From: a virus | Virus record (IMG/VR): IMGVR_UViG_3300021478_000001 | Location: 1-64,000 of that record | DNA: 64,000 nucleotides | Direction: 5' to 3' (one strand) | Shown: positions 769-61,080 of the stretch, piece after piece | How the letters are laid out: each line of letters opens with the position of its first letter | How positions within the stretch are numbered: the stretch's first letter is position 1 | The notes under the pieces: generated by a model | Told to the model about the DNA's origin: nothing | Database searches by the model: none | What the model saw: the letters and a program-made list of their open reading frames with translations, nothing else | Translations under genes and position numbers: made by a program

Positions 769-931
769 GATGATGCTCCTTTTCTAGCTCCAGATTGCGT
801 GCCATAGCACAGATGTGATCACAGCAATTCTGTACTGGTCTATGGATCATGGAGAAAGCTGGATGGTTCCTGGCTAGTTCCGAAATCTTTTCAGCTAAAT
901 CACGCAGGTCTTTGCTTTCTGGGGTGCTCAT
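761..931 (-). CDS. hypothetical protein
   Basis: ATG at 931 overlaps the polymerase stop (ATGA). Confidence 0.5.
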   Translation of the reverse strand: MSTPESKDLRDLAEKISELARNHPAFSMIHRPVQNCCDHICAMARNLELEKEHHHE

Positions 932-2928
932 TCTTTTTTCTCCATCCAACTATCACCTATTTCTGCATCAACTTTCATAGGGAGAGCCAGCGGCACAGCA
1001 ATACGCATGATCTCGGCAATTTCTTGTGCTTGCTTTTCATTTGCGATGCTGAAGCATAACTCGTCATGTATTTGCAGCACCGGGCAATATCCGGCACGCC
1101 ACACGTCACGCATGGCTATCTTGGTCTGGCGCGCAGCGCCACCCTGTATCAAAGCATTCATCGCTTTGTTGGTACGACTGCGATGTAACTTCTGCTGATA
1201 CCATTTATTTTCTGGATCATGCACGCGGCGTTGCGCTTCATTCCAGCGGCAGTCTGCTTGATAGTCTGGATTATTATCCTTTTCGTATTTAGCCCGCAAC
1301 ACATTCCACCAGTCAAACCGTATTCGTGCACCATCCAACAGTACAATATAGCCGCGATCCTCTACTCTTTCCTTGCACTTGGTATAAAGCATCTTGACAA
1401 ATGGCAGACGCTCATCATACTGATTCATAATGCGTGCTGCGGCCTCTTTGCTTTGCCCTATCATCATGGCAAATTTATCAACACCAGCACCATAGGCTTT
1501 CGCGAAGTTGCAATCCTTTGCTGGCTTTCTTTCCAATCCTGTCATCTCGGCAACCATGGCATGAAAGTCAGTATTTGGATCTTCTTGATAGCGTTGCCTT
1601 GCCGCCGCCGCCCCGGATAGCTTTTGCAGATAAGCATAGTGCACCATGAGGCGGAATTCCTGCTGACTGTAATCAACACTCAGCCATCGTTCTCCATCTT
1701 CACCAATGAAGACACTGCGAATTTCTGCCATCTCTGGATCACGATGTGGTATCTGTTGCAATGGTGGATCAGCATAGCTGAATCTATAAGTGCGTGTGCC
1801 GCCACTACTGTCTTCATCATCGCCAGGACTTTCCCCGCGATACTGATTGATAGTTGGATGTATGCGTGAATCCTCTGTGCAGAAATCCATGAGATAACCT
1901 TTAACGAATTTCTCGGCGGCTTCTTCTCGGCTTTTGGCACGGGTAATTAATCGCGGCAACCAATGAGGATGTTTCTTCATCCACTTGGCTTCAAAGCTTC
2001 CACGAGGAGAACCATCGCGGTTAGGCTTATTGGTATATGGATAAGAAATTTGTTCAGCTTGGAAAACTCTTTCTAACCATTTGACACTGCGAATATCATC
2101 AATGCCAGTAGTCTTTCCTATTCTATCTGTCAGATCAACCAAAGCAACTTGACTTTGTTCCTTGAAGCGGTAATACAGTTGTTCACATTTGTCATAATCT
2201 ATGCAGATGCCACGCTGGCGCATGGCATGGACCATGGGAACCAATTCCATTTCTAGATCATATGCGGCTGATAGTTCCTCCTTTATTATGATCGGCCGCA
2301 AAGCATGCGCCAACGCGAGCGTGCCTAGCGCGTCAGCCTCACCATAGGTGCCAACATAACGCGCGGGCATCTGATAAATGTCTTTCTTAGGATCAAATCC
2401 CATTGCTTGCGCATAATCGCGCAGCACCTCCTCTTGTTTTCCCGGCACATCATAGGTCTTGCACAGAGTATCCAATCTGTAATTCAAACCTCCTTCATCA
2501 ATCATGTAGGCCATGCAAGAGGAGTCATCAATTTGTTGAGGCGGCGGCAAGCCTAGATCACTGCTTATCCAGCCTATATCATAGGCAGCATTGTGATAAA
2601 TGAAGCGAACTTTTTTCTGCAACAAGTGCCGCAGCCAACGCCGCACTTGGCCTCTATCAAAGTTGCTGCTCTCTGGATGTGTGATTGGAATATATATTGA
2701 ACGATAATCTTCTTCCTTCCAAGCAATAGCTATGCCACATATATGTCCCGCCTTGGTTGCCCATCCCGGTCCCTTGTTTTCTTTCAATCCTATATCCTGA
2801 GTTTCACAGTCCAGGGCAATTTCTGCAACACTTGTCAGTGCTGGTAGTTCCTTTGGTGCGATCCAAGTGCTGTTAGGCAGCACGAATGAGAATGGTTGCT
2901 GGATGCCACCTACGTTTTTCTTAAGCAT
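928..2928 (-). CDS. polA: family A DNA polymerase with 3'-5' exonuclease
   Basis: ExoI DCETQD, ExoII HNAAYD, ExoIII YGEADA; motif A DYSQQEFR, motif B KDCNFAKAYG, motif C IHDEL. Confidence 0.96.
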   Translation of the reverse strand: MLKKNVGGIQQPFSFVLPNSTWIAPKELPALTSVAEIALDCETQDIGLKENKGPGWATKAGHICGIAIAWKEEDYRSIYIPITHPESSNFDRGQVRRWLRHLLQKKVRFIYHNAAYDIGWISSDLGLPPPQQIDDSSCMAYMIDEGGLNYRLDTLCKTYDVPGKQEEVLRDYAQAMGFDPKKDIYQMPARYVGTYGEADALGTLALAHALRPIIIKEELSAAYDLEMELVPMVHAMRQRGICIDYDKCEQLYYRFKEQSQVALVDLTDRIGKTTGIDDIRSVKWLERVFQAEQISYPYTNKPNRDGSPRGSFEAKWMKKHPHWLPRLITRAKSREEAAEKFVKGYLMDFCTEDSRIHPTINQYRGESPGDDEDSSGGTRTYRFSYADPPLQQIPHRDPEMAEIRSVFIGEDGERWLSVDYSQQEFRLMVHYAYLQKLSGAAAARQRYQEDPNTDFHAMVAEMTGLERKPAKDCNFAKAYGAGVDKFAMMIGQSKEAAARIMNQYDERLPFVKMLYTKCKERVEDRGYIVLLDGARIRFDWWNVLRAKYEKDNNPDYQADCRWNEAQRRVHDPENKWYQQKLHRSRTNKAMNALIQGGAARQTKIAMRDVWRAGYCPVLQIHDELCFSIANEKQAQEIAEIMRIAVPLALPMKVDAEIGDSWMEKKE

Positions 2929-2937
2929 TCATGCCTC

Positions 2938-3423
2938 CTAATGTCGGCAGTCTGGGCAGTCATCTGCATCTGCATAACCATGCGGACATGGGACATTTGG
3001 GGCATTTTTAAGAATTTCATACGCGGGTTGTCCTATCAATTTTCCGCGCTCGATCCCATCTAATCCGGTATCATCGTCATCTTGTTGTGCGTGATGGCCA
3101 CCATCTTCTGCACTCTGTTTTTGACTTAAACGTGCACGATACTCTGCCTCTACCAGCAATAGATAACGACGTAGATCTTGAATTTCTGCAAGAGTTGTGC
3201 CATCTGCACCAGGAGTATCGTCTTCATTTATGGCTGTGAAAACATTGTAGCTGAACACTTCAACCATATTTTCTAAACGATCCCATTTTCTAGCGAGCAT
3301 CATGAAGGCACCGACTCCTCCACGCTTCTTCCAGCTTCCGCGATATGTTCCTTCTTTAATTTCTAGTATTGTCACATCATCAAGAGCTACTTGTTTCAGG
3401 TATTCCATATGCTTCATGTTCAT
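2938..3423 (-). CDS. nucleotide-modification-associated all-alpha NTP pyrophosphohydrolase-like protein (Nmad1/DUF1599-like)
   Basis: YRGSWKKRGGVGAFMMLARKWDRLEN and TLAEIQDLRRYLLL helices; start moved to ATG 3423, which overlaps the TS stop and has a GGAG RBS. Confidence 0.6.
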   Translation of the reverse strand: MNMKHMEYLKQVALDDVTILEIKEGTYRGSWKKRGGVGAFMMLARKWDRLENMVEVFSYNVFTAINEDDTPGADGTTLAEIQDLRRYLLLVEAEYRARLSQKQSAEDGGHHAQQDDDDTGLDGIERGKLIGQPAYEILKNAPNVPCPHGYADADDCPDCRH

Positions 3424-4421
3424 TTCACTCTCCTTTGGATCCACTCTTTGCAAGCCATGCGCCAGTCTGGTGCTGCGATGTCGTCCGCACACAACAATGC
3501 TTCTTTATATTTCTTTTGCTTGAAAGAATGAAACGCCAGTAACGCAGGCGTGGCCACTGTTGAGAACCATAGGTTACGATAGCGACCAACTTTTTGCAGA
3601 TGAAATAATTCCCAATCAGACATGAAAGCATAAAGATCATCATCAATATCTTTAGGTTCAGTAAACATCTGCATGGCTTCGCTACTACCATCACTATAAC
3701 GATCATCTAGCAATAATTCAGGACCGGCTTGTCCCACCAATTTGTTGAACACATCCAAATAAGCGTGAGCATTGTTGCTTATCTGGTACATGACTCCGAC
3801 AGGTAGGTTACAACGTGATGCCAGATATTCTTGCAAGATGCTGAAGTGTACGGCGTTGGCACCATGCGCGCCCCATATCATGTCGTTAGACCGGCAACAT
3901 ACCGTCAGGTCTAATGCGCCATCATTGTTACGCACATAGGCGTGAGTGTTGCATGGTCGATCTTTCCAATCACCTAACAGATCATCACCATAGTCTCTTC
4001 GCACATCCCACATTTGCAACACACACTGCCGATCATGTGGATAATCTGTCAGTTTATCCACTATCACATTCAATTGATCAAAACCGAAAAAAGTACGCCA
4101 GCGACAACCATAAGCACCATGCAGCATGCCATCTTCTTCTGCGAATTGTTTGCTAAAATCCTTGATGAAATAATCCAATGGTCTTGCATCATAAAATCCA
4201 GACAGCATCCACAACGCTTCGAACATATGAAAAAATGGATTGGCATCACGAACAGGACTGAACAGCACCCGTTCCCATGGCCGCTTGGTGACGGTGCACA
4301 CCGGAACTGGACTTACTAATACTCTTCCGTTACGACTATCCTCAAACTCTGCAAAATCATTTAGATATTTGATTGTGACACTGAGTGCTTGGCATACGTT
4401 ACGAACCTCCTGGACGTGCAT
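3420..4421 (-). CDS. thymidylate synthase homologue, probable dUMP hydroxymethylase
   Basis: EALWMLSG, HGAYGCRW, DQL, PCN catalytic Cys, RSNDMIWGAHGAN (Asn at the dUMP-specificity position), NAHAY; neighbours are base-modification genes. Confidence 0.85.
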   Translation of the reverse strand: MHVQEVRNVCQALSVTIKYLNDFAEFEDSRNGRVLVSPVPVCTVTKRPWERVLFSPVRDANPFFHMFEALWMLSGFYDARPLDYFIKDFSKQFAEEDGMLHGAYGCRWRTFFGFDQLNVIVDKLTDYPHDRQCVLQMWDVRRDYGDDLLGDWKDRPCNTHAYVRNNDGALDLTVCCRSNDMIWGAHGANAVHFSILQEYLASRCNLPVGVMYQISNNAHAYLDVFNKLVGQAGPELLLDDRYSDGSSEAMQMFTEPKDIDDDLYAFMSDWELFHLQKVGRYRNLWFSTVATPALLAFHSFKQKKYKEALLCADDIAAPDWRMACKEWIQRRVK

Positions 4422-5061
4422 CGTTTCCTCCCTGTTGCAACCAGTCGCGTATTGTTTGGAAGCTTCCCTGACGGCTGAGCAAGCGGCATTTTACACCTAT
4501 CGTCCGAAGTTTGACAAATTCTTTTTTACTCTTGTCATCCAGTGCGATGATGGTGTCTTGCTTTATGTTGTGGCCGCGGTCGTGTACGGCTTGTATGCAC
4601 TTGGTTATTGGATGGTCTATGAACACAACACGAACATCCAATCTAGCTTGATGCATGATCTTGATACGTTCTAGGCTGTCGTTGAAATTCTTGCCCTCAT
4701 ACAATACATCGGCGCCTAGCTCATGATGCTTGAGAACCAACTCATAAGCATAATTCAAGCTTGGCAATGTGTCAATACCGCCATTCTGGATTTCGTAGTG
4801 GCCGGGAACAAACAAGCGACGTGTGGTATCTCCTTTGGATCTAGGACATTCTGTTTCTTCGCTAGGTTTATAACCTTTTGGGAAGCTGACTGTACAGCTA
4901 CAGTCAGGATAAGAACAACTCCATGAGCATATGTAGCCCATGGGTTTTCGCTTGTTCACTTCCGGATAAGCTATCGCGATGCGCGTTGGATATAGATCCA
5001 TAACCTTGCGCACGATCGTGCTCTTGCCAGAACCATTTGTACCTCTGATATTCACAATCAT
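4399..5061 (-). CDS. P-loop nucleotide kinase (5hmdU-DNA kinase or hmdUMP kinase)
   Basis: N-terminal Walker A IRGTNGSGKST, GGIDT, VLYEG; adjacent to the TS homologue. Confidence 0.8.
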   Translation of the reverse strand: MIVNIRGTNGSGKSTIVRKVMDLYPTRIAIAYPEVNKRKPMGYICSWSCSYPDCSCTVSFPKGYKPSEETECPRSKGDTTRRLFVPGHYEIQNGGIDTLPSLNYAYELVLKHHELGADVLYEGKNFNDSLERIKIMHQARLDVRVVFIDHPITKCIQAVHDRGHNIKQDTIIALDDKSKKEFVKLRTIGVKCRLLSRQGSFQTIRDWLQQGGNDARPGGS

Positions 5062-5252
5062 TTTCTACCCTTCTTATAACAATCTGGACACTGATGTTTC
5101 CCAGCTATCATATGCCATATCAAATTCTTGAATGTTTTTATTGCTTGATCATAATCCGCTGTTCCAACAGTAAATTTCTTTGGACAAAAATCACAGTTAA
5201 AGACTGTGCGCCCACGAACCGCACCTTTTGTTTTAGTCACTGTCATTGTCAC
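5058..5252 (-). CDS. small Zn-ribbon protein
   Basis: CDFC...CPDC; GGAGG RBS upstream of GTG 5252. Confidence 0.55.
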   Translation of the reverse strand: MTMTVTKTKGAVRGRTVFNCDFCPKKFTVGTADYDQAIKTFKNLIWHMIAGKHQCPDCYKKGRK

Positions 5253-5343
5253 TCGGTTTCCTCCATGCGAAGTTTTCTCTTTTCCCAAGCTAATCGCGTT
5301 GAATATTACGATATCGTGAATGATTGATCCTTAAATGGCATTT

Positions 5344-6375
5344 TTATTTCTCCTTCCAAGGTATACGAAGAATCTTTTCTCTAGGGCCAGTTTTCATTGC
5401 TGCCACTATATCAGCTTTAGTTTGTTCATCAGGCTTGTGCAATTTACCTTTACCTAATAAATCTGGGAGCAAGCCTACTCTATAAGATCTATGATTACAT
5501 CCATCACATACCGGGATTGCTTTCCTTTCACCACGAATAAGCATTTCACGGGCAGCCCCTAAAGCATTTCCTTGCCAAATTTCCTCCATAGATTTTTCAT
5601 TTATGTTACCACAATTATATGTTGAATCCCAAGTGTTGCAACAAATCGGAACATTACCGTCCCAGTGTACAACGAATTGCCTGAATGGATGATGACACCG
5701 TTTCCCATCCATACTATGATCTGGTGCAAAAGCTAATCCAGCATAGTTGAAAACTTTACTATGATTACCAATCTTGCTTTCCTTGTCCTGTGCAGCAATA
5801 TCTCGTATTTGTACTAATGTTCTAGTTCCACGTGGCCGACGCATATGGGGATTACCTGCTTTGTCTTGTGGATATTTGTAAAATGTGAAACCTAATGGAT
5901 GTTTTTGTCCTGAAACCAACTCTCCTTTTTCTACAAGAGCGACTATTGTCTTCGGTACAAATTTCACAGTTTCATAATCATCTAGCCCAAGCACACTCAA
6001 TCCAGCTTGAAATAATCCTGTTATGTTCGCTATAGGTCCTGGTTTGCGTAATAGACCGCTTGCATTGGTAAGCATGGTGATGTGTGCTTTAGGAAGATGT
6101 TTGCGAACGATGCCGACCATACCGATGTAGTCTGGATGCATTGTAGGTTCGCCGCGCATGGCAAAACCAACACGGCAATTCCATTTCATTTCAGCTATCT
6201 GTTGCATCACTGTAGTGATGGTTTCTTTAGACATGAACTTATATCCATGTCCTGGTTTATCTTGGATAGCTGGCATAGCACAGAACGGACAATGGATGGA
6301 GCATCCAAGAGTCAGCTCAAGCGTGACGTTGAATGGATCTTCTTGTTTTCGATATGGTCGGCGCTTCATGTCCAT
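5344..6375 (-). CDS. radical SAM protein with SPASM/twitch domain
   Basis: CSIHCPFC (CxxxCxxC), RGEPTMHP, LTNA; C-terminal CHHPF..DGNVPICC..CGNI..CDGC. Confidence 0.92.
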   Translation of the reverse strand: MDMKRRPYRKQEDPFNVTLELTLGCSIHCPFCAMPAIQDKPGHGYKFMSKETITTVMQQIAEMKWNCRVGFAMRGEPTMHPDYIGMVGIVRKHLPKAHITMLTNASGLLRKPGPIANITGLFQAGLSVLGLDDYETVKFVPKTIVALVEKGELVSGQKHPLGFTFYKYPQDKAGNPHMRRPRGTRTLVQIRDIAAQDKESKIGNHSKVFNYAGLAFAPDHSMDGKRCHHPFRQFVVHWDGNVPICCNTWDSTYNCGNINEKSMEEIWQGNALGAAREMLIRGERKAIPVCDGCNHRSYRVGLLPDLLGKGKLHKPDEQTKADIVAAMKTGPREKILRIPWKEK

Positions 6376-6383
6376 GGTTCCTT

Positions 6384-6944
6384 TCAGTAAGGTATGTCTT
6401 CAGTGGTTCTGTCCATAATAAACTTTTGTTTTGTTAAGTCAATAGTGAGTCGCATCACTTTGGCTTGATACATGGCGTTGAGAAGAGTTTGCATCTTAGA
6501 ATTTTGGAGATTGGCGTCCAAGTATTCACCAAGTAGAGTGTCTGGAGCATCATTGCGTACAATGTCTACTTCATATATGCTAGCATTAGAATTAATTGGT
6601 TCTTCATCTGATGTGGATCCATATTCAATAAAATTTCCTTCAATAGCATCCCAAGAAACTAAAACATAGTCAGCATCATCATGTGGTCGAATACCATGAT
6701 CTACTAATTCGGAGGCTTTATCTATAGGAATTAGTTTGTATTTGTTTTGTATTTGAAACATCACATGAGTTAGCTTTTCTTTAATCGCTTGTGCAAAAGA
6801 CTCAATGTTGACTGCTACGTTCATACTATAGATTTTAGAGATACAGTGTAATGCTGTTCCTTCTATTGTTTTATCTGGTTTGAAACAGATAATTTTACCA
6901 TGTCTACCAATCTTGCCGTTTGGTCTATAGAATCCCATTGACAT
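6384..6944 (-). CDS. hypothetical protein within the modification cluster
   Basis: 186-aa AT-rich ORF with GGAG RBS, no recognisable motif, ends EDIPY. Confidence 0.65.
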   Translation of the reverse strand: MSMGFYRPNGKIGRHGKIICFKPDKTIEGTALHCISKIYSMNVAVNIESFAQAIKEKLTHVMFQIQNKYKLIPIDKASELVDHGIRPHDDADYVLVSWDAIEGNFIEYGSTSDEEPINSNASIYEVDIVRNDAPDTLLGEYLDANLQNSKMQTLLNAMYQAKVMRLTIDLTKQKFIMDRTTEDIPY

Positions 6945-6993
6945 TTTAGTTCTCCCTAATTCAGGTTTGAGCGCAGATGTCGTTCAGAACCTA

Positions 6994-7938
6994 TTACATA
7001 GCACCCTCCAACTGTTTGTATGCTGCCTTGATCTTGCCGTGCAACCCATCACGCTCGGCCAAGGCGGTATTATACCACAACATCTGTTGCTCTTTCTTAA
7101 TCTTGCTGCGTTCCTCCAACATACGCGCCGCATGCACTGCATTGGACACCAGAAACTTTTCTGGATTGTATCCGGCGCGGCGCAACGTCATGCCTGCTTC
7201 TTCTTCAAACACCATGGGCAGGCCCGCACTCAGCATTTCGTAGAACCTGTTTGGTGGTGAATGGTATTCGTTGTGTGATTTGCGATCCTCCAAATAAAGA
7301 CCGAGGCCACGTTCACTTAGCCATTTGAGCAAGTCATCAGCAATACCTATGGCTTTGATTTTTTCATTGGCATAAGATTCAAATTTCTTGCTCGGGCTTG
7401 ATATCGTGATATTGCATCTTGGATCTTTGAAGAATTTGTCAAATGCCTTGATACGACCAACGCGATAACTGCCATAGTAGGCTATATCGTTCTCATGCAT
7501 GTTGCTAGGCAACGGCTTGGCCAGCATGCTCAGGCAGTTCCAGTTGATATAGGTGCTGAGTGGTGTTGCTTTGCTTTCCTTTTCACATGTCGTCCAGAAT
7601 TCTAAGTGCGACTTGCCCATCTTGCGCCGCGCCACGAACGCTTGACGGAACGGTGATTTTGCATCTCCATTGTTGATAGGAGGAACAATGGTGTAGTCTT
7701 GCTGGATCCAGACGATACGATTGGCTCCCAGGATTGCTAGACTTAGTTCTTTCAAATGTTTGCAAAAACCATAGGCACCATTGACTATGAACAAGAGGTC
7801 CAAGTTGGTGCAGTCAGCAATTTGGTCATCCCAGATCAACGGTTTCTGCAACTCATTAGACAAGAACCTTGCGACTTTCGTGCTAGCCACCATTGAGCGC
7901 TCAGTGGCCGGGATGAAGCTGAAGATCACTGTTTTCAT
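6994..7938 (-). CDS. T4 DNA beta-glucosyltransferase-like GT-B enzyme
   Basis: DLLFIVN..F..LAILGA, WIQQD, DIAYYGSYRVGR, LYLED, NRFYEMLSAGLPMVFEEE, FLVSN parallel my recollection of T4 BGT segments (DRLIVVN..LAILSA, FTD, DVIYGGSFRSG, LRVWETMASDAVMLIDEE, FYVNN). Confidence 0.75.
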   Translation of the reverse strand: MKTVIFSFIPATERSMVASTKVARFLSNELQKPLIWDDQIADCTNLDLLFIVNGAYGFCKHLKELSLAILGANRIVWIQQDYTIVPPINNGDAKSPFRQAFVARRKMGKSHLEFWTTCEKESKATPLSTYINWNCLSMLAKPLPSNMHENDIAYYGSYRVGRIKAFDKFFKDPRCNITISSPSKKFESYANEKIKAIGIADDLLKWLSERGLGLYLEDRKSHNEYHSPPNRFYEMLSAGLPMVFEEEAGMTLRRAGYNPEKFLVSNAVHAARMLEERSKIKKEQQMLWYNTALAERDGLHGKIKAAYKQLEGAM

Positions 7939-8270
7939 GCTGATTGGCCTTTCTTCATTTCTGCAATTGTAGCTGGATCATCTTTACGATGAAGGCCGCG
8001 GTCTGGATCACCAGCACCATGCCGAACACGGTAGGTGTCGAACTCATCGGCTAGTGCCATGAGTCGTATACAGAACATGGCATTGTATCCTAAGCCTATA
8101 CCAGCTTGCGCATAGGCCCGGAGTGCAGCTGGTGCCGCAGGATCACGTGCGCCTAGCACAAAGCTTGGCCACTCGACGACAGTGCCATCGCGACGCTTGA
8201 CTAGATACTTGCCTTCCGGCGTTGCTGGATTATCTCTGATTAGAGCAGTCAATGTTGGTTTCTCTTTCAT
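7935..8270 (-). CDS. conserved-type small phage protein (FVLGARDPAAPAALRAYA motif)
   Basis: GGAGG RBS before ATG 8270; stop overlaps the GT start. Confidence 0.6.
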   Translation of the reverse strand: MKEKPTLTALIRDNPATPEGKYLVKRRDGTVVEWPSFVLGARDPAAPAALRAYAQAGIGLGYNAMFCIRLMALADEFDTYRVRHGAGDPDRGLHRKDDPATIAEMKKGQSA

Positions 8271-8442
8271 TTCTTCCTCCTTTAGCACGTCGCCTACGTC
8301 TAGCTAAATTTTCACGCTCCCTCACACTCACCCGGTAGCGTATGTCTGCCTCGATAGCGCGAATTTCCGCGCATTCAAAGCAATACTTTCGAAACCTGAT
8401 GCGCTCTATTGGTGCGGCACACCGTTCACATTCACCTTTCAT
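8230..8442 (-). CDS. small Zn-finger, Arg-rich protein
   Basis: CERC...CFEC; ATG overlaps the upstream stop. Confidence 0.5.
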   Translation of the reverse strand: MKGECERCAAPIERIRFRKYCFECAEIRAIEADIRYRVSVRERENLARRRRRAKGGRNERETNIDCSNQR

Positions 8443-9359
8443 GTTGCATCTTCCCATCGGTACTTCTGTTTTGGCATCTTATCTTCGAAGTTGGCTTGAT
8501 GCCATTTCGAGTATTCGCACAAGCAATTTTGAATATCTTGGGCATGTGGTTGTGGCATCTGCTCGGCCTTGAACATCGGCAATAGTTTTTCTCGCAGCCT
8601 CCCTAGTTCTAGGCGGAATTCATCCTCTTTCCAAACATCCTTGCGATTGCGGCCGCAAACATAATTTAATCCTCTTTTTGAACCGGGTCCACTGGCAGCA
8701 AACGTATGCCAGTCTGATGCTTGACGAAGAGGCTCGTGGTATTTTATATCAGCAATCACTTGTGCGGTCATGAAGCTGCCAAATCCTTGCATGCTGCCAA
8801 GCAATATGTGAAATGAGTTGAGTGTGTCACCTGCCTTTGGTCGCAGTCTTTCTCGTGCTTTCCACAATGGTTCAATCACTTCATGTGCTAGATAAGCAAC
8901 TTTTGGAATATGAAAAGAGTCTTTTGTTAAATAATCCATGTTATCAACACTCGTTCCGGCAGTTGATACCATGTAGGCACCATTAAAGATCTTGCCGCCA
9001 GTCTTATAATAGCGACCAAGCAATCGTAGAAAAGTTGTTTTGTTGAACGGCACTGGATAGCCAACTATTTCTAAACTTTCAGGTAGATTGAGTATACGGG
9101 CAACGCACATGGCGAACCATAGTTCCGGATCATTGCTGTGCGGATTGCGCCAATTTTCTCTGATCCAAACAGTAACCTTGTCATCTTCGCGGTAGATGTT
9201 GCAGAAGCGATAACCACTAAGAATAGGATCATTCGTCCATGGTGGTCTATCACCGGCTTGGCGGCGCATGTAAATCATGTATCGTTCATGAGCGAACGCG
9301 AATATACGTTCTACTGGATCCTTGATGTTTTTGATCATACGCTCTTTAGGATCTTTCAT
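8439..9359 (-). CDS. aGPT-PPlase clade 1 / 5hmdU DNA kinase helical-domain protein (HhH glycosylase-like fold)
   Basis: WTNDPILSGYRFCNIYREDDKVT, GAYMV, GFGSFMTAQVIAD, GPGSKRGL, DIQNCLCEYSK; GGAGG RBS before ATG 9359. Confidence 0.8.
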   Translation of the reverse strand: MKDPKERMIKNIKDPVERIFAFAHERYMIYMRRQAGDRPPWTNDPILSGYRFCNIYREDDKVTVWIRENWRNPHSNDPELWFAMCVARILNLPESLEIVGYPVPFNKTTFLRLLGRYYKTGGKIFNGAYMVSTAGTSVDNMDYLTKDSFHIPKVAYLAHEVIEPLWKARERLRPKAGDTLNSFHILLGSMQGFGSFMTAQVIADIKYHEPLRQASDWHTFAASGPGSKRGLNYVCGRNRKDVWKEDEFRLELGRLREKLLPMFKAEQMPQPHAQDIQNCLCEYSKWHQANFEDKMPKQKYRWEDAT

Positions 9360-9588
9360 GTTTGTGTTCCTCCTCGACGATTTCTCCAGTTTCTCTATCA
9401 AACTCATAAGCTACACCTTGCACTATATCACCCGCTACTAACGGCTTGCCTTTGCGCTTTAGTTCTATGACTCGTACATCATTGATCGTGACAGGACCGG
9501 TGTTGGTTTCTTTCGCAACGAAACCAATCCAATTTGTACGCATCCCTTCGATGATAGTATCTAGATCATTTTTGTCTTTCGACATCAT
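9346..9588 (-). CDS. hypothetical protein
   Basis: Coupled ORF in the operon. Confidence 0.5.
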   Translation of the reverse strand: MMSKDKNDLDTIIEGMRTNWIGFVAKETNTGPVTINDVRVIELKRKGKPLVAGDIVQGVAYEFDRETGEIVEEEHKHERS

Positions 9589-10094
9589 GGTGCGCCCCAT
9601 CGTGATAGATATTTGAACACAGCCATGCCATCCTCCGATGACAGACCTAACTTTTCCAGCGCGGCAAACGTGTCTGCTATGATAGGATGAGCGAACTGGT
9701 TTCCCATCAATAGTTCCACGCGGCCGAATTCATGCATGTCTATCAGGTCGCATGCCTTGGCGCGCAGCTTTTCTTGGCCAGAAATATCAGGAAACACTCC
9801 TCCCATATTCTTGACAGCTTCTGTTTCTAGTGTGTTTATCGTATGCTTCAGGATGTCATTGTTAGCTTTGACTGGGAATGGGAGATCACCAGTCACCAAT
9901 TCACCGGCGTCGTGCCAGATAAAGTAAGTAGTAATGTAGGCGTTCGGTGGTCCCCAGATTTCATCCCAGATACGCAAGCATTGCCAAGTGTGTTCACCTA
10001 CAGTTTGACGTTGATGCGTCATCCAAGTGTGGTAACGCATAACGCTTCCGGCATAGCGAGGATTGTGCAGCACATCGTTGCGTTTCAAGTTCAT
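9585..10094 (-). CDS. HD-domain phosphohydrolase (YfbR-like deoxynucleotidase)
   Basis: VMRYHT, QTVGEH, WHDAGELVTGDLPFPVK, KACDLID. Confidence 0.88.
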   Translation of the reverse strand: MNLKRNDVLHNPRYAGSVMRYHTWMTHQRQTVGEHTWQCLRIWDEIWGPPNAYITTYFIWHDAGELVTGDLPFPVKANNDILKHTINTLETEAVKNMGGVFPDISGQEKLRAKACDLIDMHEFGRVELLMGNQFAHPIIADTFAALEKLGLSSEDGMAVFKYLSRWGAP

Positions 10095-10104
10095 ATGGGC
10101 GCCT

Positions 10105-10248
10105 CTACATTTTATGAGATGCAACAGCAACAATGCAACCAGCTAGTCCCAGCGAAACGAAAACAGCCCAAGCGTCTTGCCACCAGAACCAAAGAAATAG
10201 CAAGCAGATGCCAAGTCCAAAATGGAATAAGCCAAGAAATAATTTCAC
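10105..10248 (-). CDS. 47-aa membrane peptide (absent from ORF track)
   Basis: GAGG RBS, GTG start, MKLFLGLFHFGLGICLLFLWFWWQDAWAVFVSLGLAGCIVAVASHKM; fills the intergenic gap. Confidence 0.55.
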   Translation of the reverse strand: MKLFLGLFHFGLGICLLFLWFWWQDAWAVFVSLGLAGCIVAVASHKM

Positions 10249-10261
10249 AGTCGTACCTCTT

Positions 10262-10600
10262 TTAACAAATTACTGTGATTGGATCAAGCTTTATGTAGTG
10301 TGGATCTAGCTCGTGAAAAGCGATATTAAAGTTGATCGTTATTTTCTCATCCTTCTTGAATGCTTGTTGTATTATAAAATCCATGGCTTGCTGCAATGTT
10401 CGCCATGGTTTGTCATAGGTGCCAAGTTGTGGAAGATCAACTGGATAAGATTGATCAATATAAAAATCATAACCACCTATATACAAAGTGGTTAGGTTCC
10501 GTCCTGATAAGATCAATAATGCTCGCACCGGCATCAAGGATGCATACGGCACTATCGCAGGTGCAGCCAGAGCAAACAGTGTAGAGCGGCGCGTCAACAT
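10262..10600 (-). CDS. protein with twin-arginine-like N-terminus
   Basis: MLTRRSTLFALAAPAIVPYASLMPV; GTYDKPWRTLQQA motif. Confidence 0.55.
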   Translation of the reverse strand: MLTRRSTLFALAAPAIVPYASLMPVRALLILSGRNLTTLYIGGYDFYIDQSYPVDLPQLGTYDKPWRTLQQAMDFIIQQAFKKDEKITINFNIAFHELDPHYIKLDPITVIC

Positions 10601-10782
10601 TTCACATTCTTCCTTCGTTGGTGTTCTTCTATCACGGCATTTTCTACATGACAATACAGTTCATGTTCAAAGATTGGATCATAACAACCATGTTGTTCTA
10701 TGTATTCCACCATCGCCAGCACTGTTTCATACGGTACATTTAATTTCTGTGCGATAGCAAAGTACGGATATGACTGTGACAT
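10594..10782 (-). CDS. hypothetical protein
   Basis: Coupled small ORF. Confidence 0.5.
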   Translation of the reverse strand: MSQSYPYFAIAQKLNVPYETVLAMVEYIEQHGCYDPIFEHELYCHVENAVIEEHQRRKNVKC

Positions 10783-10785
10783 CTT

Positions 10786-10923
10786 TTAAGGACTCCACAT
10801 CATCACGGCGTAAACAATGGCAGCTACTAGCACAGCCAAGAAAAGTTGGAACACGCCTAGACGACCTGCCGCCGCCAAGGCTCCAATCGTCAATATGATT
10901 AGAGCCATTAGCAACGGTTCCAT
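10786..10923 (-). CDS. 45-aa membrane peptide (absent from ORF track)
   Basis: ATG overlaps the SSB-like stop (TAATG); MEPLLMALIILTIGALAAAGRLGVFQLFLAVLVAAIVYAVMMWSP. Confidence 0.55.
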   Translation of the reverse strand: MEPLLMALIILTIGALAAAGRLGVFQLFLAVLVAAIVYAVMMWSP

Positions 10924-11828
10924 TAGTATGGGATTTTGTCTGGATCCCCGGCAGCATCAGCACGGTCGGCTTCATCTATGCCCGCATCTTCAGGCGCTTC
11001 CATCTTTCGGCCACTTCGGAAAGCTTCAGCCAGTGCTTGGCCCATCATGTAGGCTCTGTTAGGATCATTGCCTACAATCTTTAATCCTTCCCGATGAGGT
11101 TTTTCGGGAAAGCCACTCAGATAGAACATTGGTTCACCCACATCTATGGTATACCATTGTCCTTGATTGTTGCTCTGCATGATTGTAGTGAGATGATACA
11201 GATGGCTCCATGCTGGCCATATATTGCTGTTGTTGGTGTTGCTTCCTCCTCGCACGCGGCGTTGCAGACTGGTACGCTTGGTCATCCAGGATCTGCTGAC
11301 TTTGTGCCCGGTGCTTTTAAAAGGAATGACATAAGGATATGGATTCCCATCGTGCCACACAAAGCCCGCTTCGTATCGTGTGTCCACACAATCATTTCCA
11401 GTATCTGGAAAATAATAGCGTGGTCTGTTCTTTACCTTGTCGTCACGCGTCGCACCCTCTGGCAGCTTGCCACCATTGTAGTCGTAGCTGGCAATGAAGC
11501 CGCCACCTTGCGCTCGTGGGATCCATTCGGTCCACTTCTGGTACATCACACACGGTTGAAAATCGATGCCGACTTTTCCCTGTATGATAGGAACATGGAA
11601 ATTCTTGAGCCAGAAATCCCCGCTCCTCGCGTTTTCCATATGTGCTGGCCCGTCCAGAACCTGTGGACTCAATGGTTGCAGTACATAGATAAGAGGTACT
11701 AGATTATCAGCAGCATCAGTGCTGACGCCTTTCCCCATGTCTTCGTCAAGAGCGCGCAGAACTTCTTCGCTGACTGGAATTTCTTTTTCCAGTTCTGTGC
11801 CAGCAGTAGTCGCGGGGGCTTTAGCCAT
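10923..11828 (-). CDS. putative single-stranded DNA-binding protein
   Basis: LIYVLQPLSPQV, EWIPRAQGGGFI, NNQGQWY; acidic tail ending DPDKIPY; position in a PolA replication module. Confidence 0.65.
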   Translation of the reverse strand: MAKAPATTAGTELEKEIPVSEEVLRALDEDMGKGVSTDAADNLVPLIYVLQPLSPQVLDGPAHMENARSGDFWLKNFHVPIIQGKVGIDFQPCVMYQKWTEWIPRAQGGGFIASYDYNGGKLPEGATRDDKVKNRPRYYFPDTGNDCVDTRYEAGFVWHDGNPYPYVIPFKSTGHKVSRSWMTKRTSLQRRVRGGSNTNNSNIWPAWSHLYHLTTIMQSNNQGQWYTIDVGEPMFYLSGFPEKPHREGLKIVGNDPNRAYMMGQALAEAFRSGRKMEAPEDAGIDEADRADAAGDPDKIPY

Positions 11829-12449
11829 TTATTTCTCCTTCACTGGATTGAGCTTGACCATCTTGCTTACTGTAGCACCCAAGATGGTCAGATCTTTGTC
11901 GCTGAGCGGCTTGCCATCTTGAAAGCGTTCCTTCACCACGGCTGTCAAAGTTTTCCATGGCACCGTTTCTTCTATTGTTGGAACGACCCCAAGTTTAGTT
12001 AATGCTGCCAATACTTTTTTCAGCAGTTTGTCTTGTCCTAGTCCTAGTTCTATAGTCAAGGTGGTTTTGATGATGTCTCCCAGCTTGTGCTTGCGCACCC
12101 ATTGCAGCGCCGCTTTGCGCTGACTGGATGGCCAATCACTTTTGATCACTGCATGATAATGGTCATTCAGCTTGGCCTCATATGCTGGCAAGTTTCCTTG
12201 TGCAGCAATTTCCAAACGATTGAGACCTACCTGCATGAACATGGTGGGCAAAGCGTCAAAGATCAAGTTGCGCTTCGTCTGGTTTAGTTCGCTGATATGG
12301 TTTTCCAAATCAGCTATCTTGAATTCTATGTCGCGAACCTCCCTGATTTTATCACGTATGAATTCCAGCTTGTCGGCTGGCGGTTTGGTCGCCATGTCCT
12401 TTTCTATCTGCTCCAACAAAGCAGCGTTTGATGTTTTCTGTTCCATCAT
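11829..12449 (-). CDS. conserved phage replication-module protein (coiled-coil N-terminus)
   Basis: LPTMFMQVG, AALQWVRKHKLGDIIK, VPWKTLTAVVKE pattern typical of the gene preceding SSB in PolA phages. Confidence 0.7.
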   Translation of the reverse strand: MMEQKTSNAALLEQIEKDMATKPPADKLEFIRDKIREVRDIEFKIADLENHISELNQTKRNLIFDALPTMFMQVGLNRLEIAAQGNLPAYEAKLNDHYHAVIKSDWPSSQRKAALQWVRKHKLGDIIKTTLTIELGLGQDKLLKKVLAALTKLGVVPTIEETVPWKTLTAVVKERFQDGKPLSDKDLTILGATVSKMVKLNPVKEK

Positions 12450-12622
12450 GCTGCACTCTGTGGATCTTCAAACCAGGAACAGAATTCTTCCAAGGCTATT
12501 TCCCAGCGGCTGTCTTGCTTGGCCACCTCCGTTATCGTTTTTCTTTTAGCTTTCCAGTTGCCTTCTTCATCAATAACTTCTCTGATGAGTGTGAACAGCT
12601 GTTCGATCTTTTGGTTAGTCAC
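12446..12622 (-). CDS. hypothetical protein
   Basis: GAGGAG RBS before GTG 12622. Confidence 0.5.
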   Translation of the reverse strand: MTNQKIEQLFTLIREVIDEEGNWKAKRKTITEVAKQDSRWEIALEEFCSWFEDPQSAA

Positions 12623-12816
12623 TTTTGCTTCTCCTCTTGTATTAAATAAGAATGGTTGAGTAGAATCAGCTCTCCATGTTCTTCTGGCCAATCCACTGTC
12701 AACCGATTTCTTTGCTGGTATACATAGCGATTGCCGAAGACTGCGCCATCAAAGCTAGAGCTGAGCAACACGTAGCCTTGTCGTTGAAGCCACCACATTG
12801 CTAATCGGGTAATCAT
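12619..12816 (-). CDS. hypothetical protein
   Basis: GAGG RBS before ATG 12816. Confidence 0.5.
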   Translation of the reverse strand: MITRLAMWWLQRQGYVLLSSSFDGAVFGNRYVYQQRNRLTVDWPEEHGELILLNHSYLIQEEKQK

Positions 12817-12862
12817 CTGGCTACCTCTAGCATAGCACATCCGTTACTGTTAGCAACTTCTT

Positions 12863-57216: not shown

Positions 57217-57606
57217 ATGAGCTCACTCCTAGCAATGCCGTTGGTGGCGCTGACTATTGAAGTTGGCAATAATGAAGACTGGATTGATAGCATAGTCTAT
57301 TGTGTGCCACCACCGACAGATCCTACAGCACCGCAACTAGATTTGCGTGGCATTGATTTTGAAATGGAACTGCGTAAGCATGCAGAGGACCATGAAGTTT
57401 CCTTGAGTGCTTCAACAAAAGCTGGAACAATTCAAATAGGATTGCCACCAAACTTTGGTTATCTAATATTCTATGTGCCATACAAAGACACCATGCAATA
57501 TATGGCTCCTGGAGATTACGTTGGTGACATTGTAGGAAACGATGGTCAGTATCAACGACGCGTTGCCAATATCTTTCTTACAATTGATGAAGGCATTACT
57601 CGGTGA
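57217..57606 (+). CDS. putative fibre adaptor (BppU N-terminal-like)
   Basis: [30 protein letters not shown]; precedes the fibre genes. Confidence 0.55.
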
Positions 57607-59111: not shown

Positions 59112-59118
59112 GGCAGAT

Positions 59119-60874: not shown

Positions 60875-61080
60875 GCAACGGCACAGTAGGCGGCACTGAT
60901 TGGTTGAACAGTCAACGTGATGCTGTTTATGTGCCTAATCGAGAACTGACTGTGCAGCGGCGTCTGCAGATAACTTACCGAATCATGCCAGTATATCTAT
61001 CACTGACGCCGCCAGGAGCACCACCTTCACCATTCCAATCGCCATTCCAACCTCCATTTTTGATAGGAACTGATCAATGA
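60871..61080 (+). CDS. hypothetical Pro-rich protein
   Basis: ATGA coupling at both ends. Confidence 0.5.
   Translation: MSNGTVGGTDWLNSQRDAVYVPNRELTVQRRLQITYRIMPVYLSLTPPGAPPSPFQSPFQPPFLIGTDQ

Follow-up and report, generated by a model that had tools for sequence, protein, structure and literature searches.

Thymidine hypermodification clusters have been described in the Pseudomonas phages PaMx11 and M6/YuA and in ViI, PhiW-14, SP10 and SH-Ab 15599 (Lee et al. 2018, 2021, PMC5889632, PMC8989533; PMC13458397). In PaMx11, the genes are ordered AADT (amino acid:DNA transferase)-FAD-AT-kinase-clade 1-TS-HD-polA and, in YuA, AADT-PLP-rSAM-kinase-clade 1-TS. Catalysis by the clade-2 transferases relies on an essential Cys with a Glu close by (PMC8989533). 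Reconstitution of the M6 and ViI hypermodifications did not need the clade-1 proteins, which have no assigned role even in the studied phages (PMC8989533). Among the phages compared in 2018, clade-1 proteins were confined to hypermodifying ones, and in SP10 gp186 the clade-1 domain is fused to a kinase (PMC5889632). A gene set with a glycosyltransferase is also already in print: HTVC023P-type pelagiphages carry a TS, an aG/PT-PPlase1, a 5'-deoxynucleotidase and a putative glucosyltransferase (PMC9599517), and a GT-B/ThyS association was found in metaviromes (bioRxiv 10.1101/2023.12.21.572611). Neither description includes a 5-HMUDK kinase or an rSAM (radical SAM) enzyme. In the literature searched, no product is reported for these sets or for those of E. 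coli phages EP_H11 and IME392.

The window studied here is a stretch of 64,000 nucleotides (IMG/VR record IMGVR_UViG_3300021478_000001, positions 1 to 64,000) of a complete 86.9-kb soil phage genome. Beside polA, on the minus strand, positions 2938-10133 hold a probable thymine-hypermodification cluster. The eight co-oriented genes listed in the initial annotation are all present and tightly packed, with gaps of at most 55 nt and several ATGA-type overlaps (Table 1). The cluster is best read as a thymine-replacement/hypermodification module of the M6/PaMx11 lineage in which a BGT-like glycosyltransferase and a predicted BtrN-like radical SAM enzyme (rSAM) occupy the slot of the AADT and tailoring enzymes. 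It shares with PaMx11 and M6/YuA a hydroxymethylase-type TS, a 5-hmdU DNA kinase, the clade-1 HMUDK_hel protein and an HD nucleotidase beside polA, and in each case a gene for the transfer reaction is followed by one or more for tailoring and then by the kinase gene. Unlike them, it lacks an amino acid/diamine:DNA transferase (PF18724) as well as any PLP, FAD or acetyltransferase enzyme, and carries a BGT-like GT-B and a SPASM-type BtrN-like rSAM instead. With the HTVC023P-type sets, EP_H11 and IME392, it shares a core of TS, clade 1, HD and glycosyltransferase near the polymerase.

Table 1 Genes of the cluster and the adjoining polA
Feature	Position	Strand	Remarks
polA, family A DNA polymerase, 666 aa	928..2928	-	last gene of array; PF00476 E 1e-47
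p161, conserved helical protein	2938..3423	-	listed as 184-aa ORF, GTG 3492
TS-fold enzyme, predicted dUMP hydroxymethylase, 333 aa	3420..4421	-	PF00303, phrog_5131
kinase of P-loop type, homologous to 5-hmdU DNA kinase	4399..5061	-	PaMx11 gp49 homology
p76, small Cys-containing ORF	5058..5288	-	ORF list
radical SAM enzyme with SPASM/twitch domain, 343 aa	5344..6375	-	PF04055, PF13186
p186, orphan ORF between glycosyltransferase and rSAM genes	6384..6944	-	family matches none
GT-B glycosyltransferase, 314 aa, predicted DNA 5hmU glycosyltransferase	6994..7938	-	AF2 model
p117, small ORF	7935..8288	-	short phrog_9572 match, E 1e-6
p75, small Cys-rich basic ORF	8230..8457	-	ORF list
HMUDK_hel / aGPT-Pplase clade-1 protein, 322 aa	8439..9407	-	PF18723 E 8e-40
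p84, small ORF, coding status doubtful	9346..9600	-	ORF list; overlap with both neighbours
YfbR-like HD 5'-deoxynucleotidase	9585..10133	-	PF12917; ATG 10094 = probable start

The TS homologue (PF00303, E 6e-19; phrog_5131, E 1e-91) is 41% identical to YuA gp17 and 38% to RSL1 ORF230, and lies far under every NCBIfam ThyA cut-off. It has Cys157 and, as already read in the initial annotation, the dUMP-type Asn (Asn189), in a ‘GAN’ motif common to YuA gp17 and PaMx11 gp51; in MilA and T4 gp42 this region carries Asp. It is hence predicted to be a dUMP hydroxymethylase of the type found in M6/YuA/PaMx11-like phages, with the caution that a TS-fold sequence does not distinguish hydroxymethylase from methylase with certainty (see also PMC5977210). 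No ThyA or ThyX was found elsewhere among the scanned ORFs. The HD protein matches PF12917 over its cut-off (E 1e-8) and NF003009 (E 1e-6), and is 26% identical to YuA gp18; in 17 related loci its gene is conserved beside that of the TS. Position 10094, given as the end of the cluster in the initial annotation, is the ATG start of this HD gene. The polA product has a 3'-5' exonuclease domain in addition to PF00476 and 31% identity to YuA gp21; it is presumably the enzyme that incorporates 5hmdUTP. The neighbouring p161 has homologues beside polA in 12 related loci. Its most probable start is the ATG at 3423, which gives 161 aa and lies within an ATGA shared with the stop codon of the TS gene. 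The gene called NTP-PPase-like in the initial annotation thus stands with a shifted start, and its assigned fold is faintly suggested: the model is a helical bundle across residues 1-112 (pLDDT 74), about 10 of the 22 top VIA rows are MazG-family chains with Z of only 6-7.4, and Foldseek E values exceed 2. Possibly, p161 is a MazG-like NTP pyrophosphatase, a candidate dTTPase/dUTPase.

The P-loop kinase shares 28% identity with gp49 of PaMx11, a verified enzyme, across 95% of its length (E 1e-18) and aligns full-length with YuA gp13. Its invariant features are Walker A, GG-x-D, EG and R162. No amino acid:DNA transferase was detected. PF18724, detected in the positive controls YuA and PaMx11, is absent from the complete genome at E<=1, hence also outside the window, and from five near-complete relatives, EP_H11 and RSL1. 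No PLP enzyme occurs among the 96 ORFs scanned against Pfam. Both absences had been noted for the cluster in the initial annotation. PF18723 is matched and PF18748 weakly so (9 of 19 kinase family members match it), whereas PF18724 and the T4 BGT family PF09198 are not.

The glycosyltransferase had been called BGT-like. Despite about 16% identity to T4 BGT and no sequence-level match to T4-Gluco-transf (PF09198), its AF2 model (pLDDT 95.5) has T4 BGT as top structural match (Foldseek E 2.6e-10; VIA Z 20.9, 296 of 314 residues aligned), followed by the SenB family (VIA Z 17.7). S157, R159, R162, R231 and E234 align with BGT S189, R191, R195, R269 and E272, positions invariant or nearly so in 48 family members. 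D81 corresponds to the catalytic Asp100 of BGT by topology only, the pair being unaligned in MAFFT. As modelled, the enzyme is thus BGT-like in fold and donor-site residues. Its family is phage-specific and uncatalogued, with at least 345 homologues, including true homologues in EP_H11 and IME392 (28% identity) beside HMUDK_hel. As for T4 BGT, a pre-replicative TS-fold hydroxymethylase would precede it. In contrast to T4, where the modified base is 5-hydroxymethylcytosine, its partner belongs to the uracil (Asn) rather than the cytosine (Asp) type of hydroxymethylase, and a DNA-base kinase, a clade-1 protein and an rSAM accompany the enzyme. We infer from this context and from relatives devoid of the kinase that the acceptor is 5hmdU.

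The rSAM, correctly recognized at the outset as an rSAM/SPASM enzyme (PF04055 and PF13186), has its CX3CX2C motif at C25/C29/C32. Among solved proteins, BtrN is closest (a single-sequence search gives E 1.9e-11, the family profile 3.7e-21), and the next-best with the profile, anSME (4e-7), lies about 14 orders of magnitude behind. In the biosynthesis of butirosin, BtrN acts as a radical SAM enzyme that dehydrogenates 2-deoxy-scyllo-inosamine; it and anSME are both radical dehydrogenases of carbinols. The motif is the same as in BtrN and the auxiliary-cluster cysteines align; in contrast, the window enzyme exceeds BtrN by about 70 residues, carries C247 and C257 as additional cysteines, and belongs to a family always found behind a DNA-type glycosyltransferase. 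From this likeness it is predicted to be a BtrN-like radical dehydrogenase, whose substrate the likeness leaves unfixed. The M6/YuA radical SAM enzyme (gp53/gp12) has no match in the window or related loci (BLASTP, phmmer). Homologues of the window rSAM are absent from 50,697 cultured-phage records and, among the matches listed, come from phage-sized contigs only.

Gene order in the relatives, GT-rSAM-kinase-TS-HD-p184 (p161 as listed)-polA, shows a physical coupling of rSAM and glycosyltransferase. The rSAM gene directly follows the glycosyltransferase gene in 17 of 32 loci, that is, in every rSAM-bearing locus, one of which (L032) lacks the kinase. Since the rSAM occurs only behind the glycosyltransferase, even without the kinase, its substrate seems to depend on the glycosyltransferase.

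We consider it slightly better than an even chance that thymine is replaced by hydroxymethyluracil and that a sugar is attached directly to 5hmdU in DNA and then oxidized. This agrees with the initial annotation, which had inferred a 5hmU further phosphorylated and/or glycosylated and perhaps rSAM-tailored. The TS-fold enzyme would produce 5-hydroxymethyl-dUMP, as its YuA and PaMx11 homologues suggest, while the HD 5'-deoxynucleotidase, perhaps with p161, would deplete thymidine and uridine nucleotides. PolA would place 5hmdU in phage DNA. After replication, the 314-aa GT-B would take a UDP-sugar of the host as donor and join its hexose to the 5-hydroxymethyl oxygen; no sugar-nucleotide enzymes were found elsewhere among the scanned ORFs. 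Judged by its likeness to BtrN and by its position beside the glycosyltransferase, the rSAM may then remove a hydrogen atom at a carbinol of the sugar, yielding a keto-sugar. In parallel or later, the 5-HMUDK homologue would phosphorylate 5hmdU, on which the clade-1 Cys-Glu enzyme could act. With a hexose on the hydroxymethyl of 5hmU as its predicted core, the product would be of the same kind as base J (beta-D-glucosyl-hydroxymethyluracil) of kinetoplastids, which is made post-replication by a JBP dioxygenase and the GT-A-fold JGT. Here, in contrast, 5hmU is predicted to arise before replication via a TS-fold enzyme, and the transferase is a GT-B; Pfam scans revealed no TET/JBP family member. 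If this pathway is right, virion DNA would contain (keto)glycosyl-oxymethyl-uracil and perhaps also another species derived from phosphate; we found no literature report of either. Given that a kinase of the amino-acid pathways is kept alongside sugar enzymes, the predicted DNA base is one not known to have been measured.

In 26 of 32 related viral contigs, the kinase gene lies beside that of the glycosyltransferase or beside GT-rSAM, and in most relatives the glycosyltransferase and kinase genes adjoin or overlap. This arrangement fits equally well a sequential route, which we regard as unlikely overall. The kinase would generate 5-phosphomethyl-dU, the GT-B would add a sugar onto the phosphate and the rSAM would tailor that sugar. 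The layout GT-(rSAM)-kinase mirrors AADT-tailoring-kinase, where the transferase substrate is the kinase product. SenB, the second-best fold, uses the anion selenophosphate as acceptor. The resulting sugar-1-phosphate diester on the thymine methyl would be like the phosphate-bridged sugars of SP-15, YerA41 and Carin-5, whose thymines combine sugar and phosphate (PMC12686479, PMC5977210) and give chemical precedent in phage DNA for the outcome of a kinase plus a glycosyltransferase. However, these bases have a C5 pentyl-type linker, their clusters encode sugar-nucleotide enzymes, none of which is seen in the window phage, and the SP-15 base is made at the nucleotide level. In addition, two complete relatives, one of them with the rSAM, have glycosyltransferase, clade 1, TS and HD without a kinase of the window's family, EP_H11 likewise carries a family member without it, and no Walker-A ORF lies within 10 kb of the glycosyltransferase in L028 and L029. 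Catalytic and donor residues are alike in relatives with and without the kinase, and BGT, the closest structure, acts on a hydroxyl group. The kinase-less relatives and unchanged residues favour direct glycosylation over a kinase requirement.

The clade-1 protein (PF18723, as the initial assignment to aGPT-PPlase1/HMUDK-helical proteins implied; 32% identity to YuA gp14) probably starts at M17, position 9359. It is a predicted helix-hairpin-helix, glycosylase-like enzyme in which C297-E298-x2-K301 and a GPG motif are invariant in 20 sequences. This Cys-Glu pair, reminiscent of clade-2 catalysis, the SP10 fusion to a kinase and the presence of clade 1 with the TS gene in essentially all related loci would suit a real group transferase, acting on 5-phosphomethyl-dU to install a small nucleophile or restore thymine, with the glycosyltransferase decorating the product or a minor fraction of sites. 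We judge this quite improbable, as reconstitution succeeded without clade-1 proteins in M6 and ViI, and profile comparison with the YuA AADT is not significant. Moreover, clade 1 is found in kinase-less relatives, where it cannot depend on phosphate.

It is more doubtful still that the rSAM acts on the base, either converting 5-hydroxymethyl to 5-formyluracil, as anSME does on serine, or forming a new C-C bond at the same carbon, with the glycosyltransferase working at other sites: the CH2OH in DNA is a carbinol, like those oxidized by BtrN and anSME, but the invariable position behind the glycosyltransferase in 17 loci and the occurrence without the kinase (L032) argue against it. Least credible, and very improbable, is an ordinary thymidylate synthase with the GT and rSAM serving a non-DNA target (host envelope glycan or protein), a reading left room by the hydroxymethylase/methylase ambiguity and by the wide occurrence of GT-B and SPASM enzymes in glycan and peptide pathways, but opposed by the location within the replication module, the presence there of proteins homologous to clade 1, seen in 2018 only in the hypermodifying phages among those compared (PMC5889632), and to a DNA-base kinase that is itself verified, the DNA glucosyltransferase as best structural match, and a TS that clusters with those of YuA and PaMx11 and falls far under the equivalog cut-offs for ThyA.

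The array holds four additional small ORFs, p76, p117, p75 and p84. No homologue of p117, p75 or p84 was found across distinct related loci, and p75 and p84 have no family match. p76, which has weak homologues elsewhere in loci L010-L012, is no conserved part of the module. For p186, the orphan of the initial annotation, Pfam, PHROGs and NCBIfam indeed gave no match, and no homologue turned up across 31 related loci, only the identical contig L004 carrying it; in 16 relatives, the genes on either side of its place, for glycosyltransferase and rSAM, touch or overlap each other.

From its gene content, the cluster is predicted to retain the kinase for 5-hmdU in DNA (5-HMUDK) and to have a DNA-type glycosyltransferase plus a radical SAM dehydrogenase in place of the transferase. 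All genes from 10133 down to 928 lie on the minus strand, separated by gaps of at most 55 nt and with several start/stop overlaps. The identities of polA, the TS homologue, the kinase, the clade-1 protein and the HD protein were established by matches to PF00476, PF00303, PaMx11 gp49, PF18723 and PF12917, respectively, and the named genes are therefore real. These family matches, homology to proteins of the Pseudomonas phages YuA and PaMx11, and the tight, co-oriented array bear out the eight genes that the initial annotation had named here. A promoter and terminator scan of 800-12900 returned sites no more frequent than in shuffles.

Features of the cluster, in gene order from 10133, and other loci discussed in the text
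Feature	Sequence	Position (strand)	Assignment
HD	window	9585-10133 (-)	YfbR-like nucleotidase
p84	window		
HMUDK_hel	window	8439-9407 (-)	clade-1 (aGPT-Pplase1) protein
p75	window		
p117	window		
p314	window	6994-7938 (-)	BGT-like GT-B glycosyltransferase
p186	window	6384-6944 (-)	orphan
rSAM	window	5344-6375 (-)	radical SAM enzyme
p76	window		
kinase	window	4399-5061 (-)	5-HMUDK homologue
kinase insertion	window	4834-4923 (-)	Cys-bearing segment, residues ~47-76
TS	window	3420-4421 (-)	TS-fold, predicted dUMP hydroxymethylase
p161	window	2938-3423 (-)	helical-bundle protein (p184 in locus comparisons)
p161 C-terminus	window	2938-3000 (-)	short Cys/His knuckle
polA	window		PF00476, E = 1e-47
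Pam3 gp34-like gene	window	10923-11828 (-)	
Pam3 gp34-like and gp33-like genes	window	10923-12449 (-)	gp33-like: DUF7307
two fibre genes	window	57603-60627	collagen-repeat proteins
second glycosyltransferase	window	61077-62267 (+)	GT4, PF00534, E = 1e-15
lysin	window	62604-63296	Amidase_3
kinase-methyltransferase fusion	L035	11901-13037	
EP_H11 gene row	L001	6301-11933	
RSL1 gene group	L003	1699-10093	

The sequence of the glycosyltransferase p314 has no match in Pfam, PHROGs or NCBIfam, nor in PF09198 (T4-Gluco-transf) at E <= 10. Against PDB sequences it gave chance matches only, as a single sequence or as a 48-member profile, and in hhalign it reached E = 0.023 with T4 BGT. Its homologues number at least 345, all metagenomic and all unnamed or "hypothetical". 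The AlphaFold2 model built from 48 homologues (pLDDT 95.5, pTM 0.91) ranks T4 BGT entries at the top in Foldseek (E = 2.6e-10 to 7e-9, TM 0.65-0.71). In VIA it aligns with T4 BGT at Z 20.9 and an rmsd of 3.7 Å over 296 of its 314 residues, followed by SenB (Z 17.7), PimA (17.1) and the T4 alpha-glucosyltransferase (16.9). With the T4 BGT sequence taken from NC_000866, hhalign and MAFFT match p314 S157, R159, R162, D218, R231 and E234 to BGT S189, R191, R195, D258, R269 and E272. In BGT, S189, R191, R195, R269 and E272 are UDP-glucose-binding residues; their five p314 counterparts are invariant or nearly so in the 48 homologues. The catalytic base of BGT is Asp100. In p314, strand 74-79 leads into an invariant D81, in the way that the "KIYYLFT" segment of BGT leads into D100; MAFFT, however, pairs D100 with the non-conserved D92. 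In short, p314 is predicted to work like BGT yet belongs to an uncatalogued family; the top structural rank and the aligned donor site agree with its initial description as a BGT-like glucosyltransferase.

The radical SAM enzyme contains a CX3CX2C motif (C25-x3-C29-x2-C32), whose cysteines are invariant in 34 homologues, and a SPASM/twitch domain (PF13186, E = 6.5e-14). Its closest solved relative is BtrN, with both domains covered: the single sequence reaches E = 1.9e-11, and a profile of 34 members reaches 3.7e-21. anSME comes next at 4e-7 and nothing else is near. BtrN and anSME, which have the CX3CX2C motif and an auxiliary Fe-S domain in common with the window enzyme, are radical dehydrogenases converting a carbinol into a carbonyl. 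At least 229 homologues were found, all metagenomic, with generic names only and on contigs of at most ~92 kb for the longest; there was none in 50,697 records of cultured phages.

The TS homologue matches PF00303 (E = 6e-19) and phrog_5131 (E = 1e-91), and scores far under all NCBIfam ThyA equivalog cut-offs. It is 41% identical to YuA gp17 over its full length and 38% identical to ORF230 of Ralstonia phage RSL1. Cys157 and Asn189 ("GAN") are common to YuA gp17, and HMMER places Asn189 opposite the Asp of the CMP hydroxymethylase MilA. In a MAFFT alignment, the window protein, YuA gp17, PaMx11 gp51 and RSL1 ORF230 share the motif RSND-x3-G-x3-A-N, with V at the A position in the E. coli phage EP_H11. 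Asp179 of the T4 dCMP hydroxymethylase lies one position earlier than Asn189 in this alignment, so that the two differ by one residue in the loop. The Asn189 motif, common to YuA and PaMx11, is thus the residue type of phages with 5hmdU-derived DNA, in line with the dUMP-type Asn initially reported. Hence, the protein is a predicted dUMP hydroxymethylase with a uracil-type Asn189, although sequence cannot separate a hydroxymethylase from a methylase.

By tblastn (E = 1e-18), the kinase is 28% identical to PaMx11 gp49 across 95% of its own length, and its family aligns over the full length with YuA gp13; against PF18748 it scores 16 bits, under the cut-off of 27. PaMx11 gp49 is listed by Lee et al. 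as an experimentally demonstrated 5-hmdU DNA kinase (Table 1, PMC8989533). The clade-1 protein (HMUDK_hel) matches PF18723 (E = 8e-40; score 137 bits, cut-off 25) and is 32% identical to YuA gp14. The gene for the latter directly follows the YuA kinase gene, the same position as that listed for gp55, the second glycosylase-like paralogue of the related phage M6 (Table 3 in PMC5889632). Residues R42, N70, R73, D76, G240-P-G242 and C297-E298-x2-K301 are invariant in 20 clade-1 family members. In clade-2 transferases, catalysis involves an essential Cys with a nearby Glu (PMC8989533). Comparison of the clade-1 family with the YuA amino acid:DNA transferase (AADT, clade 2) in hhalign was not significant, aligning only a GFG helix-hairpin-helix-like motif. 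Clade 1 was dispensable in published reconstitutions (PMC8989533), and no functional assignment was found for it in the literature searched. Clade 1 accompanies TS whether or not a relative has the kinase, and its role therefore appears tied to 5hmdU hypermodification generally. The HD protein, homologous to YuA gp18, scores 35.6 bits against PF12917 (cut-off 25.9) and shows a "WHDAGE" motif in its translation.

The contig that begins with the 64-kb window is 86,933 bp long and has a 127-bp terminal overlap; it is classed in IMG/VR as having direct terminal repeats and given 100% completeness by CheckV. Its gene content (terminase, Mu-like baseplate, sheath and tube proteins, collagen-like fibres) is that of a tailed phage, and its large terminase is 60% identical to the counterpart in Pseudomonas phage PAJU2. 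The stretch, or part of it, is present in six soil metagenome DNA runs from six studies, the source run possibly among them, and no RNA run containing it is listed. The cluster had no megablast match among the 50,697 cultured-phage records, and the phage has no near relative there.

Over this complete genome, a six-frame search with PF18724, the Pfam model for AADT, returned nothing at E <= 1. YuA gp10 matches this model at 3e-48, and the same search finds the AADT in YuA and PaMx11; the enzyme is also absent from five near-complete relatives, EP_H11 and RSL1. Pfam scans of 96 ORFs across the genome detected no PLP, FAD or acetyltransferase tailoring enzyme, no sugar-nucleotide enzyme and no ThyA/ThyX. 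Searches of the genome with YuA gp11 and with gp12, the radical SAM enzyme of YuA that carries a photolyase-like annotation, gave no match. That neither a clade-2 transferase nor a PLP enzyme is recognisable, as initially noted, thus holds for the DNA beyond the window as well. The kinase and clade 1 are common to the kinase/AADT pathway of M6, PaMx11, ViI and PhiW-14, but its AADT and tailoring enzymes were not found here. T4 BGT, with which p314 shares the GT-B fold and UDP-glucose-site residues, acts on 5hmC from an Asp-type dCMP hydroxymethylase, whereas the neighbouring TS has Asn189 here. Unlike the base J pathway, with its JBP dioxygenase and GT-A JGT, the genome yielded no TET/JBP in the Pfam scans and its transferase is of the GT-B type. 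Overall, the system is predicted to operate as a cross between the PaMx11/M6 route and the glucosylation of T4, but it lacks the defining transferase of the former and falls outside the sequence family of T4 BGT.

We fetched 32 IMG/VR loci with the p314-family alignment and scored them with family HMMs. A p314 homologue and the kinase occur together in 26 of them, mostly adjacent or overlapping, and the kinase-containing form is commoner for the p314 family than the kinase-less one. The radical SAM gene, found in 17 of the 32, each time lies directly downstream of the p314 homologue. Clade 1 is present in 25 loci, and TS, HD, p184 and polA in most loci with enough flank; homologues of YuA gp10, gp11 and gp12 are found in none. 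The usual order is clade 1 ... GT - (rSAM) - kinase - TS - HD - p184 - polA, as compared to AADT - FAD - AT - kinase - clade 1 - TS - HD ... polA in PaMx11 and AADT - PLP - rSAM - kinase - clade 1 ... TS ... polA in YuA. Therefore, the variable slot for transfer and tailoring, located upstream of the kinase, is taken here by the glycosyltransferase and its radical SAM partner.

Some relatives dispense with the kinase. The complete contigs L029 (68 kb) and L032 (61.5 kb) encode the glycosyltransferase, clade 1, TS and HD, and L032 the radical SAM enzyme as well. No kinase of the 5-HMUDK family was found in either, the control search being positive in 5 of 5 cases, and in L028 and L029 no ORF carrying a Walker A motif lies within 10 kb of the p314 homologue. 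EP_H11 and IME392, both cultured E. coli phages, also have a p314 homologue (28% identity), with genes for a PIG-L-type deacetylase, HMUDK_hel, a P-loop protein of the AAA_28 type, TS and HD on its flanks; a 5-HMUDK-family kinase is absent from both. These phages have been listed as suspected thymidine-hypermodifying, their DNA not being analysed there (PMC12686479). Relatives that have the kinase and relatives that lack it do not differ in the conserved p314 residues, D81 and the donor site among them, and none of the family's residues convincingly tracks the presence of the kinase.

Because kinase-less relatives exist and the conserved p314 residues are unchanged without the kinase, direct O-glycosylation of 5hmdU is favoured. 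p314 would act on 5hmdU as BGT does on 5hmC, the radical SAM enzyme would modify the sugar already attached by p314, and the kinase and clade-1 protein would perform a parallel or later step. The main rival is a sequential phospho-sugar route, in which the sugar is attached via the kinase-made phosphate. This route is consistent with the tight linkage of the glycosyltransferase and kinase genes, and with the second-best fold match of p314 being SenB, whose acceptor is an anion. In addition, phosphate-bridged sugars occur on thymine derivatives in SP-15, YerA41 and Carin-5 (PMC12686479, PMC5977210). Against it, L029, L032, EP_H11 and IME392 keep the p314 family without a kinase of the 5-HMUDK family. 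We regard as rather unlikely that the kinase and p314 work in series, whether 5hmdU is phosphorylated and the sugar placed on the phosphate or the glycosylated base is phosphorylated, with a BtrN-like oxidation leading post-replicatively to a phospho-keto-glycosyl thymine. If true, this serial scheme would extend the "activation" logic of 5-HMUDK from amino-acid to sugar transfer, give the clade-1 protein a testable context and yield an unreported base. The initial interpretation, a 5hmU that is glycosylated and/or phosphorylated and maybe tailored by the radical SAM enzyme, is supported as far as computation reaches, direct O-glycosylation being its preferred form.

To our knowledge, all characterised post-replicative thymidine hypermodifications depend on a kinase together with a transferase for amino acids or diamines, and the literature searched held no report of glycosylated 5hmdU from a phage TS-type pathway. 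A pelagiphage study reported TS and aG/PT-PPlase1 near PolA, joined in some cases by a 5'-deoxynucleotidase and by a putative glucosyltransferase, and identified no product (PMC9599517). Likewise, a metavirome survey found GT-B-like enzymes with thymidylate synthases in ~28% of pathways, again with no product identified (bioRxiv 10.1101/2023.12.21.572611). What the window contributes is the pairing of such genes with a bona fide 5-HMUDK homologue. Given the size of the p314 and radical SAM families, the cluster predicts a widespread phage DNA base. If confirmed, it would be a base-J-like sugar on thymine in a bacterial virus, made by a TS-fold route, and would include the first case of a radical SAM enzyme tailoring a sugar linked to DNA; comparing relatives that have or lack the kinase would then offer a clean genetic contrast for the roles of the kinase and clade 1. 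Such enzymes are of interest for labelling and mapping 5hmU and matter for phage resistance to restriction and DNA-glycosylase defences, and the set is small and easily reconstituted.

Several features of the relatives and of the window stand beside this scheme. In EP_H11, a PIG-L GlcNAc-deacetylase-like gene, a 344-aa gene, the p314 homologue, HMUDK_hel, AAA_28 and TS lie in a row, which suggests a hexosamine on 5hmU. RSL1 places next to HMUDK_hel and TS two nucleotidyltransferases, an APS kinase, a gene resembling galactose-3-O-sulfotransferases and three genes annotated as glucosyltransferases; the product could be a sulfated glycan on thymine. In L035, a complete 61.7-kb relative, the 5-HMUDK-type kinase has a SAM-dependent methyltransferase domain fused to its C-terminus. 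Methyltransf_31/12/25 matches are confined to this member of the kinase family, and the fusion tentatively suggests that the lineage adds a methylation as one more step. The window kinase carries an insertion of ~30 residues with C49, C54, C56 and C72, and C45 just upstream, that is missing in 18 of 18 aligned homologues including YuA gp13 and could be a metal-binding insert. A GT4 glycosyltransferase in the late region was rejected as a cluster member because its neighbours are collagen-like fibre genes on one side and the lysis amidase on the other; its target may be a host glycan or the fibres, or conceivably DNA, with the enzyme as a second sugar transferase for it.

The orphan p186 falls precisely at the junction of p314 and the radical SAM gene, which abut or overlap in 16 relatives. 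Its C-terminus, ending in EDIPY, is reminiscent of the acidic tail of SSB proteins. DKIPY is the end of the Pam3 gp34-like protein, whose gene lies with the gp33-like one just upstream of the cluster; both co-occur with it in many related loci.

Finally, the gene initially called NTP-PPase-like, p161, is real, but its most likely start is the ATG at 3423, overlapping the TS stop codon, which gives 161 aa instead of 184. As modelled, p161 is a helical bundle. Its VIA matches show an enrichment of MazG-family chains at Z 6-7.4, mixed with unrelated helical proteins and in the noise range for helical bundles; Foldseek returned nothing significant (E > 2), Pfam no match and the family profile no PDB match. 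A MazG-like NTP pyrophosphatase is thus weakly supported by the model. A DUF1599 lead was dropped after the family search gave no match. The C-terminus of p161, CPHGYADADDCPDCRH, forms a short Cys/His knuckle that the aligned homologues do not have, and several of them carry a conserved C-terminal domain of ~130 residues in its place.
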